Source: Escherichia coli (GTDB taxonomy: Bacteria > Pseudomonadota > Gammaproteobacteria > Enterobacterales > Enterobacteriaceae). From it: a stretch of DNA of 64,000 bases. Each line of letters begins with the position of its first letter. The stretch's first letter is position 1. Below are positions 1 through 64,000 of this stretch, in pieces. The notes below the pieces were generated by a model, which saw only the letters and a list, made by a program, of their open reading frames with translations, searched no databases and was not told where the DNA came from. The position numbers and the translations under genes were made by a program. The stretch lies in assembly GCF_011045215.1 (NCBI RefSeq), contig NZ_CP049201.1. One strand, given 5' to 3'.

Positions 1-298
1 TCAAACAGGCGGCAATCCCCTTCTCTGGCGTTATCTCAACAAAATTGACGTTACGCGTATCTACAATTGTCTGATTCAGAACAATATCGACACGATAAAC
101 CCCTGGCGTTATTTTTTGTCCTTTTTCGAAACGAGACAAATCGGCCACCATTGAGGGATCATCTTTGAAAAAGGCTGGATCGAACCAGGTTTCAGCTTGT
201 GCATTGAACGCTGCCGACACAAACACCACCAGCCCACCAATAAACGATGGCACTCCACCAGAGCTTAACAGGCTGTGTTGTCGGTGAGTTCTATACAT
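1..298 (-). CDS. elfC: Fimbrial outer-membrane usher, N-terminal ~99 aa only (truncated by window edge)
   Basis: Hand translation of minus strand from ATG at 298..296 gives MYRTHRQHSLLSSGGVPSFIGGLVVFVSAAFNAQAETWFDPAFFKDDPSMVADLSRFEKGQ..., a typical usher signal peptide and N-terminal domain; sits downstream of the chaperone as in chaperone-usher operons. Not in ORF track because it runs off the window. Confidence 0.7.
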   Translation of the reverse strand, partial: MYRTHRQHSLLSSGGVPSFIGGLVVFVSAAFNAQAETWFDPAFFKDDPSMVADLSRFEKGQKITPGVYRVDIVLNQTIVDTRNVNFVEITPEKGIAACL

Positions 299-322
299 CT
301 CGCTCTCTTAACTGAAGACGAA

Positions 323-1024
323 TTACGATTTACAGTTGAGTTGCGGCGTTTCCGCCCCGTAGTCATTGATGGTTCGATACGTTACGCTGCTATTTTTGGC
401 ACCCTTTGGCAGAGAGAATTGGTATTTATCAAAGGGGGAAATCATTTGATTTTTAACTAACTTTCCACCTATTTTCAGGTCTGTCAGGGTAATGAAATAA
501 GGTGTTGGGTTACTGACCGTAACCATGTCAGCTGACGAAGTGCAACGCAGTTTCGCCGGAGCCTCGCCTAAGGGATACGCTAAACCTTTTGGTCGCCAGA
601 AAAGTTTGATGACGCTTTGTGTGGCAATCTTCAGGGTATTGCCTTCTTCCCGCTTCGTTGTTGAAGGGACTGCCCGTACGCTAGTGAAGAAAAGAGTTTC
701 TCTGTCTTTCGCCAACGGCGCGCCAATGTACATAATGCGTAACAGATTCTCGTTTGCCGGATTCAGCACAAATAGCGGTGGTGTAATAATAAAGTCCGCT
801 GATTTTTTATTATCTGGGGTCATCACCCATGACTGAATCAGATAAGGAACATCCGGACTGGTGTTACGTACACCCAGTGAAATTTGCTCTTCACCTTCCG
901 AATAAACAAGACGTGTTGCTGCAAGTCCAACCCCGCCTTTACCTGCCGCCCATGTGGACGAACAGCTGAGTAATATTGCCGTTAAACTTACGGTCACAAC
1001 TCCCTTTGTTATGCAAGTTTTCAT
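323..1024 (-). CDS. elfD: Periplasmic fimbrial chaperone (PapD-like), 233 aa
   Basis: ORF track 233 aa; signal peptide, PapD-like composition; position between fimbrial subunit and usher; length matches YcbR/ElfD as recalled. Confidence 0.85.
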   Translation of the reverse strand: MKTCITKGVVTVSLTAILLSCSSTWAAGKGGVGLAATRLVYSEGEEQISLGVRNTSPDVPYLIQSWVMTPDNKKSADFIITPPLFVLNPANENLLRIMYIGAPLAKDRETLFFTSVRAVPSTTKREEGNTLKIATQSVIKLFWRPKGLAYPLGEAPAKLRCTSSADMVTVSNPTPYFITLTDLKIGGKLVKNQMISPFDKYQFSLPKGAKNSSVTYRTINDYGAETPQLNCKS

Positions 1025-1053
1025 AAACAGTCACTCTTAAAAAATATGAATAT

Positions 1054-1076
1054 CCCCTCCAGAACACTGGAGGGGT
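1054..1076 (-). terminator. Stem-loop (cccctccag/ctggagggg) followed by T-rich tract on minus strand; possible intra-operon attenuator after fimbrial major subunit gene
   Basis: Inverted repeat read directly; T-run aaaaaa on plus strand at 1039-1044 lies downstream on the minus strand. Confidence 0.35.
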
Positions 1077-1106
1077 ACTAATTAATAAAACGATTAATGA
1101 GTTCTA

Positions 1107-1655
1107 TTAATAATAGTTAATATGGAAATTTGTTACCGCATTCACATTACCTGAAGTCGCTTTACCCGTAGCGATATAATGAACTTTAAAAGTCAACGTC
1201 TGATCTCCATCTTGCAACAAAATGTTCCCGGTTTCTGTGTCTGGCTTGATGGCCGTTGTACCATCATTCATATACATTTGCAGGGCCACGTTTGTAGCAG
1301 CATCAGATGAGGCCTGGTTAGCAAACGCTGTAATCTGAGTAGTATCCGCAGTGCCATTAAAGGTGAACGTTGCATTTTTTGTTACGGTAGTATCACAATC
1401 TTTTAATTCAATTGGCACATCAGTTTGCACGCCAGAAACCTGACCATTGGTTTGCAACTTCGTGGCACTAACATCTGGCAAAGTCACCACGGAATCTTTC
1501 GTCGCAGCTACCAGGGTACAAGCTGGAGCAATAACTTTACCATTAAATGTTACTGAGCCATCCGTGATAGCATTATCATCAGCAGCCATAACGCTGGACG
1601 TTGCACATACCACAGTTATAAACGCCGTCAATACACTTTTTTTCATCGTTATCAT
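1107..1655 (-). CDS. elfA: Fimbrial major subunit (true start probably MKKSV at 1646)
   Basis: ORF track 182 aa with signal peptide (..SSVMA/ADD), Cys pair, C-terminal aromatic residues typical of pilins; adjacent to chaperone/usher genes; directly beside ssuE as in K-12. Confidence 0.8.
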   Translation of the reverse strand: MITMKKSVLTAFITVVCATSSVMAADDNAITDGSVTFNGKVIAPACTLVAATKDSVVTLPDVSATKLQTNGQVSGVQTDVPIELKDCDTTVTKNATFTFNGTADTTQITAFANQASSDAATNVALQMYMNDGTTAIKPDTETGNILLQDGDQTLTFKVHYIATGKATSGNVNAVTNFHINYY

Positions 1656-2001
1656 CCTGATCTCTTCGTAAATATGATAATGCCTTTAAATGACATCAGA
1701 CTTAATAATAACAATAATTGTCCGCCATTTAAATCAAGCATACTAAATCCAATAAGTGACAAATCTTTAATTTATAGATTTCATGAATATTTAAATATTA
1801 ATTGAACGAGTAATTCATTGATTCAACATCTAATGACTATCCAATAAATAAATATGCGTGATATATAAAGCCCTTTCTTTAGTTTATTTTCAGAAAAAGA
1901 TACACAAAATTTATATTTGGCATTTTCTTGTCTCTCCGACAGACTGAGCGAATTGTTATCAATGTTAACAAAACAAGAACAATTGGTTATAAGGAGAGAG
2001 T

Positions 2002-2577
2002 ATGCGTGTCATCACCCTGGCGGGTAGTCCTCGCTTTCCTTCTCGCTCCAGCTCCTTGCTGGAATATGCGCGGGAAAAACTAAATGGCCTGGATGTTGAG
2101 GTTTATCACTGGAATCTGCAAAACTTCGCCGCGGAAGATCTGCTTTATGCTCGTTTCGATAGTCCGGCACTCCATACCTTCACCGAACAGTTGCAACAGG
2201 CTGACGGGCTGATTGTCGCCACGCCTGTATATAAAGCCGCCTATTCCGGTGCGCTGAAAACCCTGCTCGACCTGCTGCCAGAACGTGCGTTGCAAGGCAA
2301 AGTGGTGCTACCGCTGGCGACGGGCGGTTCGGTGGCCCATCTGCTGGCGGTCGATTATGCCCTTAAGCCAGTTTTAAGTGCGCTGAAAGCCCAGGAGATC
2401 CTGCACGGCGTGTTTGCCGATGACTCGCAGGTGATTGATTACCATCACAAACCCCAGTTCACGCCGAATTTACAAACCCGTCTTGATACCGCGCTAGAAA
2501 CTTTCTGGCAGGCATTGCACCGCCGCGATGTTCAGGTTCCTGATCTTCATTCTCTGCGAGGTAATGCCCATGCGTAA
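2002..2577 (+). CDS. ssuE: NADPH-dependent FMN reductase of the sulfonate-sulfur utilisation system, 191 aa
   Basis: ORF track 191 aa; first gene of the five-gene ssu operon with overlapping downstream genes; AT-rich promoter region upstream. Confidence 0.93.
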
Positions 2578-3529
2578 CATCATTAAACTGGCGCTGGTGG
2601 GATTGCTTAGCGTCTCTACACTCGCGGTTGCTGCAGAGTCTTCGCCAGAGGCGTTAAGGATTGGCTATCAGAAAAGCAACATCAGTTCGGTGCTGGCGAA
2701 AAATTACCAAATGCTGGAAAAACGCTATCCGCAAACAAAAATCTCGTGGGTGGAGTTCCCCGCTGGCCCGCAAATGCTTGAGGCGTTAAACGTTGGCAGT
2801 ATTGATCTCGGCAGTACCGGGGATATTCCGCCAATCTTCGCCCAGGCTGCCGGGGCTGATTTGCTGTACGTGGGCGTCGAGCCGCCGAAGCCAAAAGCCG
2901 AGGTGATTCTGGTGGCAGAAAACAGCCCGATCAAAACCGTAGCCGATCTTAAAGGCCACAAAGTTGCGTTCCAGAAAGGTTCCAGTTCACACAATCTTTT
3001 ACTGCGCGCACTACGCCAGGCCGGACTTAAGTTTACTGACATCCAGCCCACTTATCTGACGCCAGCTGATGCCCGCGCCGCGTTCCAGCAAGGTAACGTT
3101 GACGCCTGGGCTATCTGGGATCCCTACTACTCCGCTGCATTATTACAGGGCGGCGTGCGGGTGTTGAAAGACGGCACCGATCTCAATCAAACCGGATCGT
3201 TTTATCTGGCAGCTCGCCCCTATGCAGAAAAAAATGGCGCTTTTATTCAGGGTGTACTGGCAACCTTTAGTGAGGCCGATGCGTTAACCCGCAGCCAGCG
3301 CGAGCAAAGCATCGCTTTACTGGCAAAAACGATGGGCTTACCGGCACCGGTGATTGCCTCTTACTTAGATCATCGCCCTCCTACCACCATCAAACCGATT
3401 AACGCCGAGGTTGCCGCCTTACAGCAGCAAACGGCAGATCTGTTTTATGAAAACCGTCTGGTGCCGAAAAAAGTCGATATTCGCCAGCGCATCTGGCAGC
3501 CCACTCAACTGGAAGGAAAACAATTATGA
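2570..3529 (+). CDS. ssuA: Periplasmic aliphatic sulfonate-binding protein, 319 aa (start ATG at 2570, overlaps ssuE end)
   Basis: ORF track frame; N-terminus [21 protein letters not shown] is a signal peptide; substrate-binding protein fold composition. Confidence 0.93.
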
Positions 3530-39572: not shown

Positions 39573-40856
39573 TCAGGCTGCCTGGCTAATCCGCGCCAGC
39601 TGCTCGAAATAATCCGGAAATGTTTTGGCCGTACATTTGGGATCAAGAATCGTCACTGGTGTATCTGACAACGCCACCAGCGAAAAACACATCGCCATCC
39701 GGTGATCATTGTATGTCGCGATCTCGGCAAAGTTCAGTTTTTCCGGTGGAGTGATACGAATGTAATCGTGCCCCTCTTCTACTTCCGCACCGACTTTACG
39801 CAGTTCTGTTGCCATCGCAAACAGGCGATCGGTTTCTTTAACACGCCAGTTATAGATATTGCGCAGCGTGGTGGTGCCTTTTGCAAATAACGCCGCCGTG
39901 GCAATGGTCATCGCCGCATCAGGAATATGGTTCATATCCATATCAATAGCGTTCAGTTCACCACGCGTGCAGGAAATATAATCATCGCCCCAGCAAATGG
40001 TCGCGCCCATTTTTTCCAGCACATCAGCAAAGCGAATATCACCCTGCATACTGTTACGTCCAATACCGGTCACTTTTACAGTGCCGCCTTTGATTGCTGC
40101 TGCTGCCAGAAAGTAAGAAGCCGAAGATGCATCGCCTTCGACCAAATAAGTACCCGGAGACTGATAAGACTGCCCGCCTTTTACGACAAATTGTTGATAG
40201 TGCTGATTTTCAATTTCAACACCAAACGTCTTCATCAGATTGAGTGTGATGTCGATATAAGGTTTAGAAACCAGATCGCCTTTAATACGAATCACCGTAT
40301 CTTCCGGCGCAAGAGGCGCAGTCATTAACAGTGAGGTGAGGAATTGGCTGGAAACGGAGCCATCAACGTCAACGTTGCCGCCAGTAAAGCCGCCCTGTAA
40401 ACGCAACGGCGGATAATTTTCTTGTTCCAGGTAAGTGATCTTCGCCCCGCCCAGGCGCAGCGCATCCACCAGATGACCAATCGGGCGCTCTTTCATACGC
40501 GGCTCACCGGTCAGCACAATATCATTGCTACCCAGACAAAGAGCTGCCGCCAGCGGACGCATCGCCGTTCCGGCGTTACCGAGGAACAACTCCAGGGCAC
40601 CTTCTGCGTGTAATGGACCGCCGTTACCGATAATTTCGCAACGTGTACGATCGGCTGAAAGCGTATAGCTTACCCCTAACGCTGTTAATGCATTCAGCAT
40701 ATGGCGCACGTCATCGCTATCCAGCAGATTGGTTAATACTGTTTTGCCGTGTGCTAATGCCGCCAGCAATAAAGCGCGGTTAGAAACGCTCTTGGAACCG
40801 GGCAGATTAATAGTGCCATCGACACGAGCGATGGGTTGTAACGTCAGGGATTCCAT
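39573..40856 (-). CDS. aroA: 3-phosphoshikimate 1-carboxyvinyltransferase (EPSP synthase), 427 aa
   Basis: ORF track 427 aa; N-terminus [35 protein letters not shown]. Confidence 0.97.
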
Positions 40857-60981: not shown

Positions 60982-63900
60982 TTAGTCAAACGGCGGTGGG
61001 GCCAGCACTTCACGATTACCGTTGTGCCCCTGTTCGCTGACAATCCCCTGCGCTTCCATCTGTTCGATAATACGCGCTGCACGGTTATAACCAATGCGGA
61101 ACTGACGCTGTACGCCAGAAATTGACGCTTTGCGTTTTTCAGTGACAAACTGCACCGCCTGATCGAACAACGGATCCAGTTCTTCAGCGCCATCGAAACC
61201 GCCCGCGCCACCTTCGCTTTCACTGTCGGAAGTGATGCCATCAACATACTGTGGGCGACCACGCGCTTTCCAGTCCTGCACCACGGCATGAACTTCCTGA
61301 TCGCGAACAAAAGCACCATGGACACGTACCGGCAACGTGGAGTTCGGCCCAGAGTAGAGCATATCCCCCATACCCAGCAGTGATTCCGCGCCAGCCTGAT
61401 CAAGAATGGTACGTGAGTCAATCTTACTGGATACGGTAAAGGCGATACGGGTCGGAATATTCGCTTTAATCAGACCAGTAATAACATCAACCGATGGACG
61501 CTGAGTTGCCAGTACGAGGTGGATACCCGCGGCACGGGCTTTTTGCGCCAGACGTGCTATCAGCTCTTCCACTTTTTTACCTACCGTCATCATCAGGTCG
61601 GCAAATTCGTCAACCAACACCACAATGTATGGTTCTTTTTTCAGCACCGGATGCTGGGCATCCATACTGTCACCCGGCTTCCAGTACGGGTCTGGAATCG
61701 GACGCATCATGCGATCGGCTTCAGCAATTTTTTCGTTATAACCCGCCAGATTACGCACACCCAGCGCAGACATCAGTTTATACCGACGCTCCATCTCGTT
61801 AACACACCAGCGCAGCGCGTTGGCGGCATCTTTCATATCAGTAACGACTTCCGTTAACAGATGCGGAATGCCTTCATAAACCGAAAGCTCCAGCATTTTC
61901 GGGTCGATCATGATGAAACGCACATCTTCTGGCTGTGCTTTATAAAGCATGCTCAGGATCATCGCGTTCACACCGACAGATTTACCGGAACCGGTAGTCC
62001 CCGCAACCAACAAGTGCGGCATTTTCGCCAGATCGGCAACCACCGGCTCACCGGCGATATCTTTACCCAGCACCACGGTTAATGGCGACGGATTATCGCG
62101 GAATTTGGCGTTATCCAAAACTTCGCGCAGATAAACGGTTTGTCGTTTTTTATTCGGTAACTCCAGACCTACATAGGGTTTGCCAGGAATAACTTCAACG
62201 ACACGCACCGCCACCGTCGAAAGTGAACGGGCAAGGTCCCGTGACAAGTTAGAAATGCGCGCCGCTTTTACGCCCGGTGCCAGGTTCAATTCAAAGCGAG
62301 TGATAACCGGCCCCGGAGAGTAATTGACGACATCGGCTTTAATACGGAAATCAGCCAGACGCGCTTCCACCAGGCGAGCCATTTGTTCAAGCGCAAAGGT
62401 ATCTACCGGCTCCACTTCGCTCGGCGGCGGTGTCAGCAAATCCAGAGAAGGCAGCGGCGTCGTCGGTTTATGCAACGGACGGCTGTCGCCATTACGCATC
62501 AACAGCGGATGAAGCAGGGTATCCTGCTGCTGCGGTGCAACCGGTTGTTGCGGCTGCTGTACAGGTTCAACAATTGGCGTAAACAACGGTTCGTGTGGAC
62601 CATCATCCAGCAACGCTTTCATTGGCGAAAATTCAAAATCATCCAGCGAGAACGGATTCGCCCCAGCCGGTTGTTCGCCGGAATAACGTTGTTGTTGAGT
62701 TTGCGCAAACTGACGAGCCAGTTCAGCCTCTGCCGCAGCATCTGCATCTTCTGCGTTTACGGGCACATCATGTTGATACTGTTCGCCATAGCGTTGCTGC
62801 TGTGTCTGGGCGAACTGACGTGCCAGTTCATCCTGCTGCATCGCATCGATTTCATCATCGTTGTACTGATCGCCAGAATCGTACTGATTGCGCTGGGCTT
62901 CACGGGCTTTTTCTTCCGCCGCACGCTGTGAGGGCAGCTTAATACCGTAAGACGCCAGTTCACGACGAGTTGGCACGCGGATACGTTTCGGTCGTGGCAA
63001 CTGCGGGCCAATCCCCTCTTTGACCTGCGGACGCGGTCCACCGCTATTTGCCAGACTGAAGACTGGCGCGGCAACGGTTGCGGCAGCCCCCGTCGCCAGT
63101 GTCGCTTTTTTCACGCCAGATGCCAGCGGAGAAACAGCGGCAGCGGTTTCTACTGGAGGTACTGCTGCAACAGAAAGTGCTTTCAGCGAAGATTTGATCG
63201 GTTCTGGTTCTTTAACCGGTTCTGGAATCGGTTGATACCAGGCCGCAAGTTGTTCACGTTCACGGGCTCGCTTCTCTTCCACTTCTTCAAAGTAGTAAAG
63301 CGGCGGACGCGCGGGTTTTGTCTCTTCTACAACGGGTTCAGGCTCCACAACAGGCTGCTGTTCAACAGGTTGCGGCTGTTGGTACAACGGCTCCTGAGCG
63401 GCTGGCTGCTGATAAGTTTGCTCAGTCTGGTATGTAGACTGTGGAGCAAAAGTGGATTGCTGCTCTTCGGCTTGCCAGGCGTTACCTGCCACCGGTTGTT
63501 CTGGCGCAGGGGCATAATACGGCTGTTGCGCAGGCTGTTCCGGCGCAGTTGCGTAATACGGTTGCTGAACAGGTTGTTCCGCCGCAGGAGCGTAGTAAGG
63601 TTGTTGCGCAGGTTGTTCAGCTGCAGGTGCATAATACGGCTGCTGCGGCTGTACTGGTTGTTGCAGCGGCTCATTATATTGCACTGCAGGCTGCGCATAT
63701 TGTGACTGCTGTGGGTAACCTTCCGGTGCAGGAGCAATAACCGGCTCTCCCGTTTGTGGACCCGGTACAGGCTGCCAGGCTACTGTAGGTTGCGAAGGTG
63801 GAACATCAACAGAGGCAACAGGCGGCGTCTGAGTCACAGGTTCAACCGGCGCAGCCCAGCTTTGTGTCGCCGTGGTAGCAGCAGCTGCCACAGCGACAGG

Positions 63901-64000
63901 TTCGGTAATTGGCGCACCGTTTAATAATGGATCGTATTCGTCATATTCTGGCTGCGTTGCACGATTGCCCGAAAATAGGACGTCGTCCGGGTCGGCAGCC
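60982..64000 (-). CDS. ftsK: DNA translocase FtsK, C-terminal ~1005 aa (N-terminal membrane domain lies beyond the window)
   Basis: Minus-strand frame open from 60982 to the window edge (I checked there is no stop between 63891 and 63999); Walker A GTTGSGKS and Pro/Gln-rich linker present. Confidence 0.95.
63490..63645 (-). repeat. Four imperfect 39-bp tandem repeats encoding [13 protein letters not shown] in the FtsK linker
   Basis: Translation [13 protein letters not shown] / [13 protein letters not shown] / [13 protein letters not shown] / [13 protein letters not shown]; both DNA strands are open in several frames here. Confidence 0.8.

Follow-up and report, generated by a model that had tools for sequence, protein, structure and literature searches.

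FtsK has an N-terminal domain anchored at the septum and a C-terminal motor that translocates DNA, and the two are joined by a linker. This linker is unstructured and Pro/Gln-rich, its length and composition vary between species, and parts of it have been reported to contact FtsQ, FtsL, FtsI and FtsZ (PMC5357621). Its precise function has been called unclear (PMC2680272). The region, termed FtsK-L, was described by Bigot et al. (2004), Massey et al. (2006) and Dubarry et al. (2010), all cited here through PMC5357621 and PMC6137255.

Tandem repeats in the linker-coding part of ftsK are familiar from bacterial typing. CVN001 is the ftsK locus of the generic Escherichia coli MLVA scheme of Lindstedt et al. 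(as cited in PMC5217547 and PMC11773471); its alleles carry four to eight repeats (PMC5217547), and its primer sequences have been published (PMC11773471). SENTR2, a locus of the Salmonella Enteritidis MLVA, is a repeat of 39 bp in ftsK, present in 9.3 copies (PMC2430564). An 84-bp indel in the Salmonella ftsK linker, at codons 757–784, corresponds to the loss of two of nine repeats (PMC6137255). When Salmonella ftsK alleles with a two-unit difference in this repeat were exchanged, survival in egg white, the sole phenotype assayed, was unchanged (PMC6137255).

A separate tandem array in the ftsK linker is described here from a stretch of 64,000 nucleotides of E. coli DNA (assembly GCF_011045215.1, contig NZ_CP049201.1), referred to below as the window. 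The ORF list, Pfam matches and RefSeq annotation of matching loci identify the 3′ part of the ftsK coding sequence, 1,005 codons, at positions 60982–64000 on the minus strand, with the stop at 60982 and the frame open at the window edge. The 5′ end of the gene, about 324 codons that include the membrane domain, lies beyond position 64000. The partial product shows the FtsK alpha domain that begins the motor (PF17854, residues 516–616, E = 7e-30; 62152–62454, minus strand), the FtsK/SpoIIIE P-loop ATPase domain (PF01580, residues 624–837, E = 5.5e-88; 61489–62130, minus strand) and the FtsK gamma domain (PF09397, residues 940–1000, E = 1.7e-28; 61000–61182, minus strand). The gamma domain of FtsK is KOPS-binding. 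The three domains occur in the order found in an FtsK/SpoIIIE DNA translocase, and all of them score above the curated Pfam cut-offs.

The genomic context is also that of ftsK. RefSeq loci that match the gene have the order lrp-ftsK-lolA-rarA(-serS), and positions 40000–62300 of the window align in a single piece to a region with rarA, ycaO, pflB and dmsA, the best match among complete E. coli genomes being 99.5% (O157:H7). Loci homologous to the window gene at 99–100% identity encode full-length FtsK of 1,329–1,368 aa, which is the range annotated at the 20 complete-genome loci that were read; the product of the window allele would be about 1,290 aa.

The array, here termed R1, lies at 63490–63645 on the minus strand and consists of four in-frame units of 39 bp (13 aa): u1 (63607–63645), u2 (63568–63606), u3 (63529–63567) and u4 (63490–63528), all on the minus strand. 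All three Pfam motor matches lie downstream of it, and the Pro/Gln-rich stretch upstream of the motor gave no Pfam domain match in a search with the partial product. These matches and the RefSeq annotation bear out the placement of the array between membrane and motor domains by a sequence-only reading of the window. The array was characterized with Tandem Repeats Finder, a repeat-family search, the unit sequences with their pairwise identities, and a codon-shuffle control. Tandem Repeats Finder calls a 39-bp period with 3.9 copies (63494–63647, 77% matches, score 175), as well as a 78-bp period over the same array (1.9 copies, 81%, score 206). The identity of R1 with itself at a lag of 39 bp is 0.761, as against a mean of 0.364 (s.d. 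0.045, maximum 0.573) in 10,000 codon shuffles; the best in-frame lag other than 39 reaches 0.421. The four in-frame 13-aa units named in the sequence-only reading are thus confirmed by repeat search, translation and shuffle control.

Each unit encodes 13 Pro/Gln/Tyr-rich residues, and the consensus proposed in that reading is approximate, as units 3 and 4 carry T or P substitutions. At the nucleotide level the units are 74–82% identical in pairwise comparison, and every one of them carries diagnostic substitutions. A pair of units differs by 4–8 synonymous and only 1–3 non-synonymous codon changes. The longest exact in-register match between R1 units is 7–14 bp.

The window contains a second array position, R2, approximately 1 kb downstream of R1 and in the same linker. 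It is reduced here to a single 13-aa unit, seen in translation at 62521–62559 (minus strand), and it corresponds to the MLVA locus CVN001. The CVN001 primers match the window without mismatch (ECMLV4-R, 62432–62453, plus strand; ECMLV4-F, 62654–62674, minus strand) and delimit an amplicon at 62432–62674. They flank R2, not R1; R1 is outside the primers and does not form part of CVN001. Most E. coli have about five to nine tandem R2 units. The single-unit allele of the window is rare, with 14 carriers among the 5,426 complete E. coli genomes when only E-value-gated, uninterrupted alignments are counted.

R1 varies between strains. Of the 5,426 complete E. coli genomes, all but one (5,425) gave a match to a 601-bp query that included the array. 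In a sample of 40 records taken at even intervals, the match covered 601, 562 or 523 bp, i.e. four, three or two units, in 13 records each. For full counts, queries were made of each array form with 150 bp of flank on either side, and the E-value limits were so strict that an alignment had to run through from one end to the other to pass them. By this measure R1 has four units in 1,825 genomes, three in 1,846 and two in 1,730 of the 5,426. The three classes cover 5,401 of 5,425 genomes, with 24 outside them. It should be pointed out that the genome collection is biased to clinical lineages and is without Shigella, and ‘one third each’ describes the collection, not nature. The expectation of the sequence-only reading that linker length differs between strains is therefore correct. 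With units arranged head-to-tail and a copy number that differs between strains, R1 is a VNTR in the general sense of the term.

The diagnostic substitutions allow the shorter alleles to be read unit by unit. The allele of K-12, YJ3 and O157:H7 consists of u1 and u4 with no mismatches, a clean 78-bp deletion. Strains O6:H16, 90-3040, 503829, NIST0056 and ESM2.2 carry u1, u2 and a u3/u4 hybrid, again with no mismatches. UTI89 and 4973 have u1, a u2/u3 hybrid and u4; E01 has a u1/u2 hybrid followed by u3 and u4; ARB0349 has u1 and a u2/u4 hybrid; and 2014C-4135 has a u1/u2 hybrid and a u3/u4 hybrid. Since the shorter alleles are composed of intact or hybrid copies of u1–u4, they are best read as in-register deletions from a four-unit parent, and the six derived structures point to at least six independent deletions of this kind. 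This number rests on the hybrid-unit structures; the ftsK gene tree is blurred by recombination and was used in a supporting role only.

The opposite course, from two units to four by recent duplication, appears implausible. The divergence of u2 and u3 from u1 and u4 is 18–26%, whereas no two alleles show more than 65 differences in the 2,805 positions of ftsK outside the repeat (~2.3%), which argues that u2 and u3 are not recent duplications. Other members of the genus also have the array: E. albertii and the SCPM-O-B-8794 lineage have four units, E. whittamii has five, and two further species have two. Judged from these sequences, the four-unit R1 of the window is the presumptive ancestral full-length form in Escherichia, and that of K-12 a derived short form.

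The R1 position was followed outside the genus with the help of a conserved 25-residue linker motif, encoded at 63218–63291 (minus strand) about 65 codons downstream of R1. The motif, written as a degenerate pattern with one match in the window, served as an anchor for the equivalent linker position in other genera, and the linker was recovered in this way from 59 Enterobacteriaceae species genomes. Kluyvera and one gut isolate have at the R1 position a 13-aa unit, QPQQPAYEQPQYA, in 8–14 copies. The Klebsiella oxytoca group, Raoultella and some Enterobacter have a 24-aa unit in 4–6.5 copies, and Superficieibacter and Pseudocitrobacter have other units. In this linker comparison, Salmonella and Citrobacter show no array at the R1 position and keep the flanking conserved motif. 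At the R2 position a 13-aa unit is common to Escherichia, Salmonella and Citrobacter; other genera have units of 12, 14 or 15 aa. The presence of arrays in several genera indicates that tandem Pro/Gln/Tyr-rich arrays are a general, lineage-specific feature of the FtsK linker.

Three long off-frame ORFs are present in the linker, at 63232–63705 (plus strand), 63327–63737 (minus strand) and 63441–63740 (plus strand). All three are in the mechanical ORF list, as the sequence-only reading had noted. They are wholly inside the ftsK coding sequence, and RefSeq annotates ftsK alone in the homologous stretch; they were rejected as real genes and are probably spurious. The repeat had been offered as their cause, but the stop-poor Pro/Gln codon composition of the linker as a whole would seem to explain them better than R1 does.

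The interpretation favoured here is that R1 is very probably a four-unit spacer array, in which short alleles have arisen by rare in-register deletions and differences in copy number are nearly neutral. A four-unit ancestor would have lost 39 or 78 bp in register between microhomologies of at most 14 bp, either by replication slippage or by unequal exchange, routes suggested by the hybrid junction sequences. Deletions of this type would leave intact or hybrid units and an unbroken reading frame, and the resulting alleles would then be stably inherited within lineages. The changes would add or remove 13–26 residues in a linker of about 640 residues. R1 most probably serves as no more than extra flexible spacer, and copy differences would accordingly be close to neutral. 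Two observations sit less easily with this picture: the R1 peptide is far better conserved than the DNA that encodes it, which would not be expected of a pure spacer, and the near-equal thirds of two, three and four units could reflect selection instead of the lineage make-up of the database, which runs counter to near-neutrality.

The sequence-only reading had called the array prone to slipped-strand or recombinational change and had raised the possibility of collapse or expansion in the assembly. The hybrid units agree with change by slippage or recombination; the word ‘prone’ does not fit the data. A hypermutable contingency locus, with frequent slipped-strand mispairing within populations, is suggested by the head-to-tail units, the strain-variable copy number and the use of the neighbouring ftsK array as a VNTR typing marker, but for R1 it is very improbable. 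The unit is 13 codons long, so a change in copy number cannot disrupt the frame or switch the gene off; the frame is kept in the window and in all 20 alleles read, and R1 does not switch expression through frame or promoter spacing. A phase-variable locus was rejected for the same reason, all copy changes being in frame. Nor are the units near-identical and fast-slipping, with their 74–82% identity and exact in-register matches of 14 bp at most, and the clones sampled show no internal variation: K-12 derivatives, and likewise O157:H7 strains, which have two units, are uniform in the samples. In addition, 1,669 of the 1,730 two-unit alleles share 99% identity or more with the K-12 allele, which indicates one old deletion that was widely inherited and not repeated new events. 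Because of the short exact matches, the shared two-unit haplotype and the uniformity within K-12 and O157:H7, R1 is regarded as a slowly changing length polymorphism, stably inherited within lineages, that changes on evolutionary and not on culture timescales. An assembly artefact, with the four copies of the window a mis-expanded repeat, can be practically discounted. Short-read drafts do break here, as shown by the 981-bp contig P0018 (90 member sequences), which ends in R1 and R2, and by the draft sequence P0014, which begins inside R1. However, at least two complete genomes share with the window, at 100% identity, a 456-bp stretch across R1, the 1,825 four-unit genomes align end to end over the array, and the unit-specific substitutions make R1 unambiguous to assemble. 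The artefact was rejected on the strength of the identical four-unit sequence in complete genomes, and the worry over collapse or expansion is unfounded for R1. Assembly collapse is of more concern for R2, which is much more self-similar.

A functional role for the unit is unlikely. R1 could be a multivalent short linear motif, for example for divisome docking, with copy number tuning valency or tether length and being kept polymorphic by selection. The peptide has been kept while the DNA diverged, with synonymous well in excess of non-synonymous differences; Escherichia species have kept the array, at two to five units; unrelated genera possess distinct arrays at this linker position, those of Kluyvera (13 aa) and of the K. 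oxytoca group and Raoultella (24 aa) among them; the two-, three- and four-unit alleles are near-equal in frequency; and linker parts are reported to contact FtsQ, FtsL, FtsI and FtsZ (PMC5357621). These points favour a functional motif. On the other hand, Salmonella and Citrobacter do without the array yet keep the neighbouring motif, E. coli lineages have lost units repeatedly and in differing combinations, no partner or phenotype is known, and frequencies from a clinically biased database are an unreliable guide to selection. A fuller version of the idea is quite improbable. In it, selection would hold the number of units at two, three or four, each seen in about one third of the E. coli genomes; as a conserved short linear motif, the unit would tune either the engagement of the linker with the divisome or the reach of the motor from the septum, and the analogous arrays in other enterobacterial genera would be convergent counterparts. 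A functional test of R1 copy number was not found in the searchable literature.

The practical consequences of the R1 polymorphism, a near-neutral one on the spacer interpretation, are small. Differences in FtsK length between E. coli strains are natural, produced by two separate 39-bp arrays, and are not annotation errors. R1 is a stable three-state marker with hybrid-unit signatures and could serve to mark lineages, unlike the faster CVN001. Short-read assemblies often break at R1 or R2, and ftsK is consequently fragmented in many draft genomes. If R1 copy number does affect linker function, the natural alleles would provide a ready-made series for its study; nothing found suggests such an effect.

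With regard to known systems, the R1 polymorphism exemplifies a well-known trait of ftsK, and it is visible in existing annotations. In the literature on ftsK repeats and typing, no scheme or paper was found that uses or describes the R1 polymorphism, and only the other array is covered. CVN001, i.e. R2, resembles R1 in being in the same gene and the same linker, in its 39-bp, 13-aa Pro/Gln-rich unit, in its reading frame and in its strain-variable copy number. It differs in being a separate array with more alleles and with units that are far more alike, the longest exact in-register match being 28–65 bp in R2 as compared with 7–14 bp in R1. SENTR2 and the Salmonella 84-bp indel are likewise 39-bp coding tandem repeats in the FtsK linker that are polymorphic between isolates, but these correspond to R2, and Salmonella lacks R1 at the corresponding place in the linker.

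The linker arrays of other genera share with R1 the tandem Pro/Gln/Tyr-rich character and the location, immediately upstream of the conserved motif; they differ in unit sequence, unit length (12, 13, 20 or 24 aa) and copy number (4–14). From these sequences they appear to be independent expansions and not orthologous units. R1 is itself within FtsK-L as described in the works cited through PMC5357621 and PMC6137255; it resembles the domain described there in composition, is equally unstructured and, as the domain does from one species to another, varies in length and sequence. Those works deal with variation among species and with deletions made by engineering, whereas R1 provides a within-species case, a single 13-aa array in which the allele structures are resolved.

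The second ftsK array, R2 ([17 protein letters not shown] locus CVN001), is represented in the window by one 39-bp unit on the minus strand at positions 62521–62559, which lies within the CVN001 amplicon (62432–62674). This compares with six units in K-12 and approximately 5.4–9 units in the sampled genomes. FtsK would have a length of approximately 1,290 aa with the window allele. The single unit reflects either a real deletion of 234 bp or a repeat that collapsed in this one assembly. Among the 5,426 complete E. coli genomes, only 14 carry the single-unit allele according to uninterrupted alignments, and these carriers represent three or more sequence backgrounds (identities of 100%, 99.8% and 98.6%), with hosts that include panda, swine, chicken and human. 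One of the 14 genomes has three units rather than four in R1, the tandem array of 13-aa units situated in the Pro/Gln-rich FtsK linker.

Some R2 arrays contain a 5-aa partial unit, QQPQY, as observed at the ftsK loci of strains 504239 (L002), ESM2.2 (L016) and UTI89 (L020). The partial unit leads to fractional copy numbers of 4.4 and 6.4, and the FtsK proteins with these arrays are 1,334 and 1,347 aa long. In strains that carry the partial unit, CVN001 fragment sizes would sit between those of the integer alleles.

Many database proteins are annotated as 'FtsK, partial', and their source contigs, approximately 0.6–1.3 kb in length, start or end within R1 or R2. Fragments of this type at contig ends are the entries P0018, P0014, P0035, P0040, P0043, P0047 and P0066. 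The P0018 contig, for example, is 981 bp in length, with its ends in the final unit of R1 and the initial unit of R2, and the entry has 90 member sequences. Salmonella FtsK fragments that have hundreds of members also end within R2. The R1 and R2 arrays are routine break points of short-read assemblies. The single-unit R2 junction of the window recurs in the 582-bp contig of P0066.

The ftsK repeat flanks in the window show 100% identity with unrelated strains, whereas over positions 40000–62300 (22 kb) the closest complete E. coli genomes, those of O157:H7 strains, reach only 99.5%. The 40000–62300 region looks mosaic. In addition, a few ftsK-linker matches are found on plasmid records (8, 10, 4 and 3 places in four separate searches), and therefore some plasmid-labelled sequences contain fragments or copies of chromosomal ftsK. 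In the complete genome of strain 2014C-4135 (locus L004), the ftsK neighbour lrp is annotated as a frameshifted pseudogene at locus positions 1619–2112. The frameshift may reflect either a sequencing error or true loss of this global regulator.

The linker also contains a dispersed direct-repeat pair, D3, at positions 62683–62729 and 62788–62834 of the window, whose copies are 81% identical and 105 bp apart. Read from the minus strand, the pair encodes [14 protein letters not shown](S)GEQ twice in the linker. Unlike R1 and R2, the D3 peptide pair is also present in FtsK of Salmonella, E. albertii and Raoultella, and on the basis of this distribution of sequences it may be a conserved functional motif.

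In other enterobacteria, tandem peptide arrays are found at the same two linker positions, and these differ by genus (loci L021–L079). The array consists of 13.6 copies of a 13-aa unit in Kluyvera genomosp. 3, 6.4 copies of 24 aa in Klebsiella michiganensis and 7.2 copies of 20 aa in Raoultella sp. BIGb0138, while Pseudocitrobacter vendiensis has 8.2 copies of a 12-aa unit at the R2 position. These FtsK linker arrays look like independent expansions.
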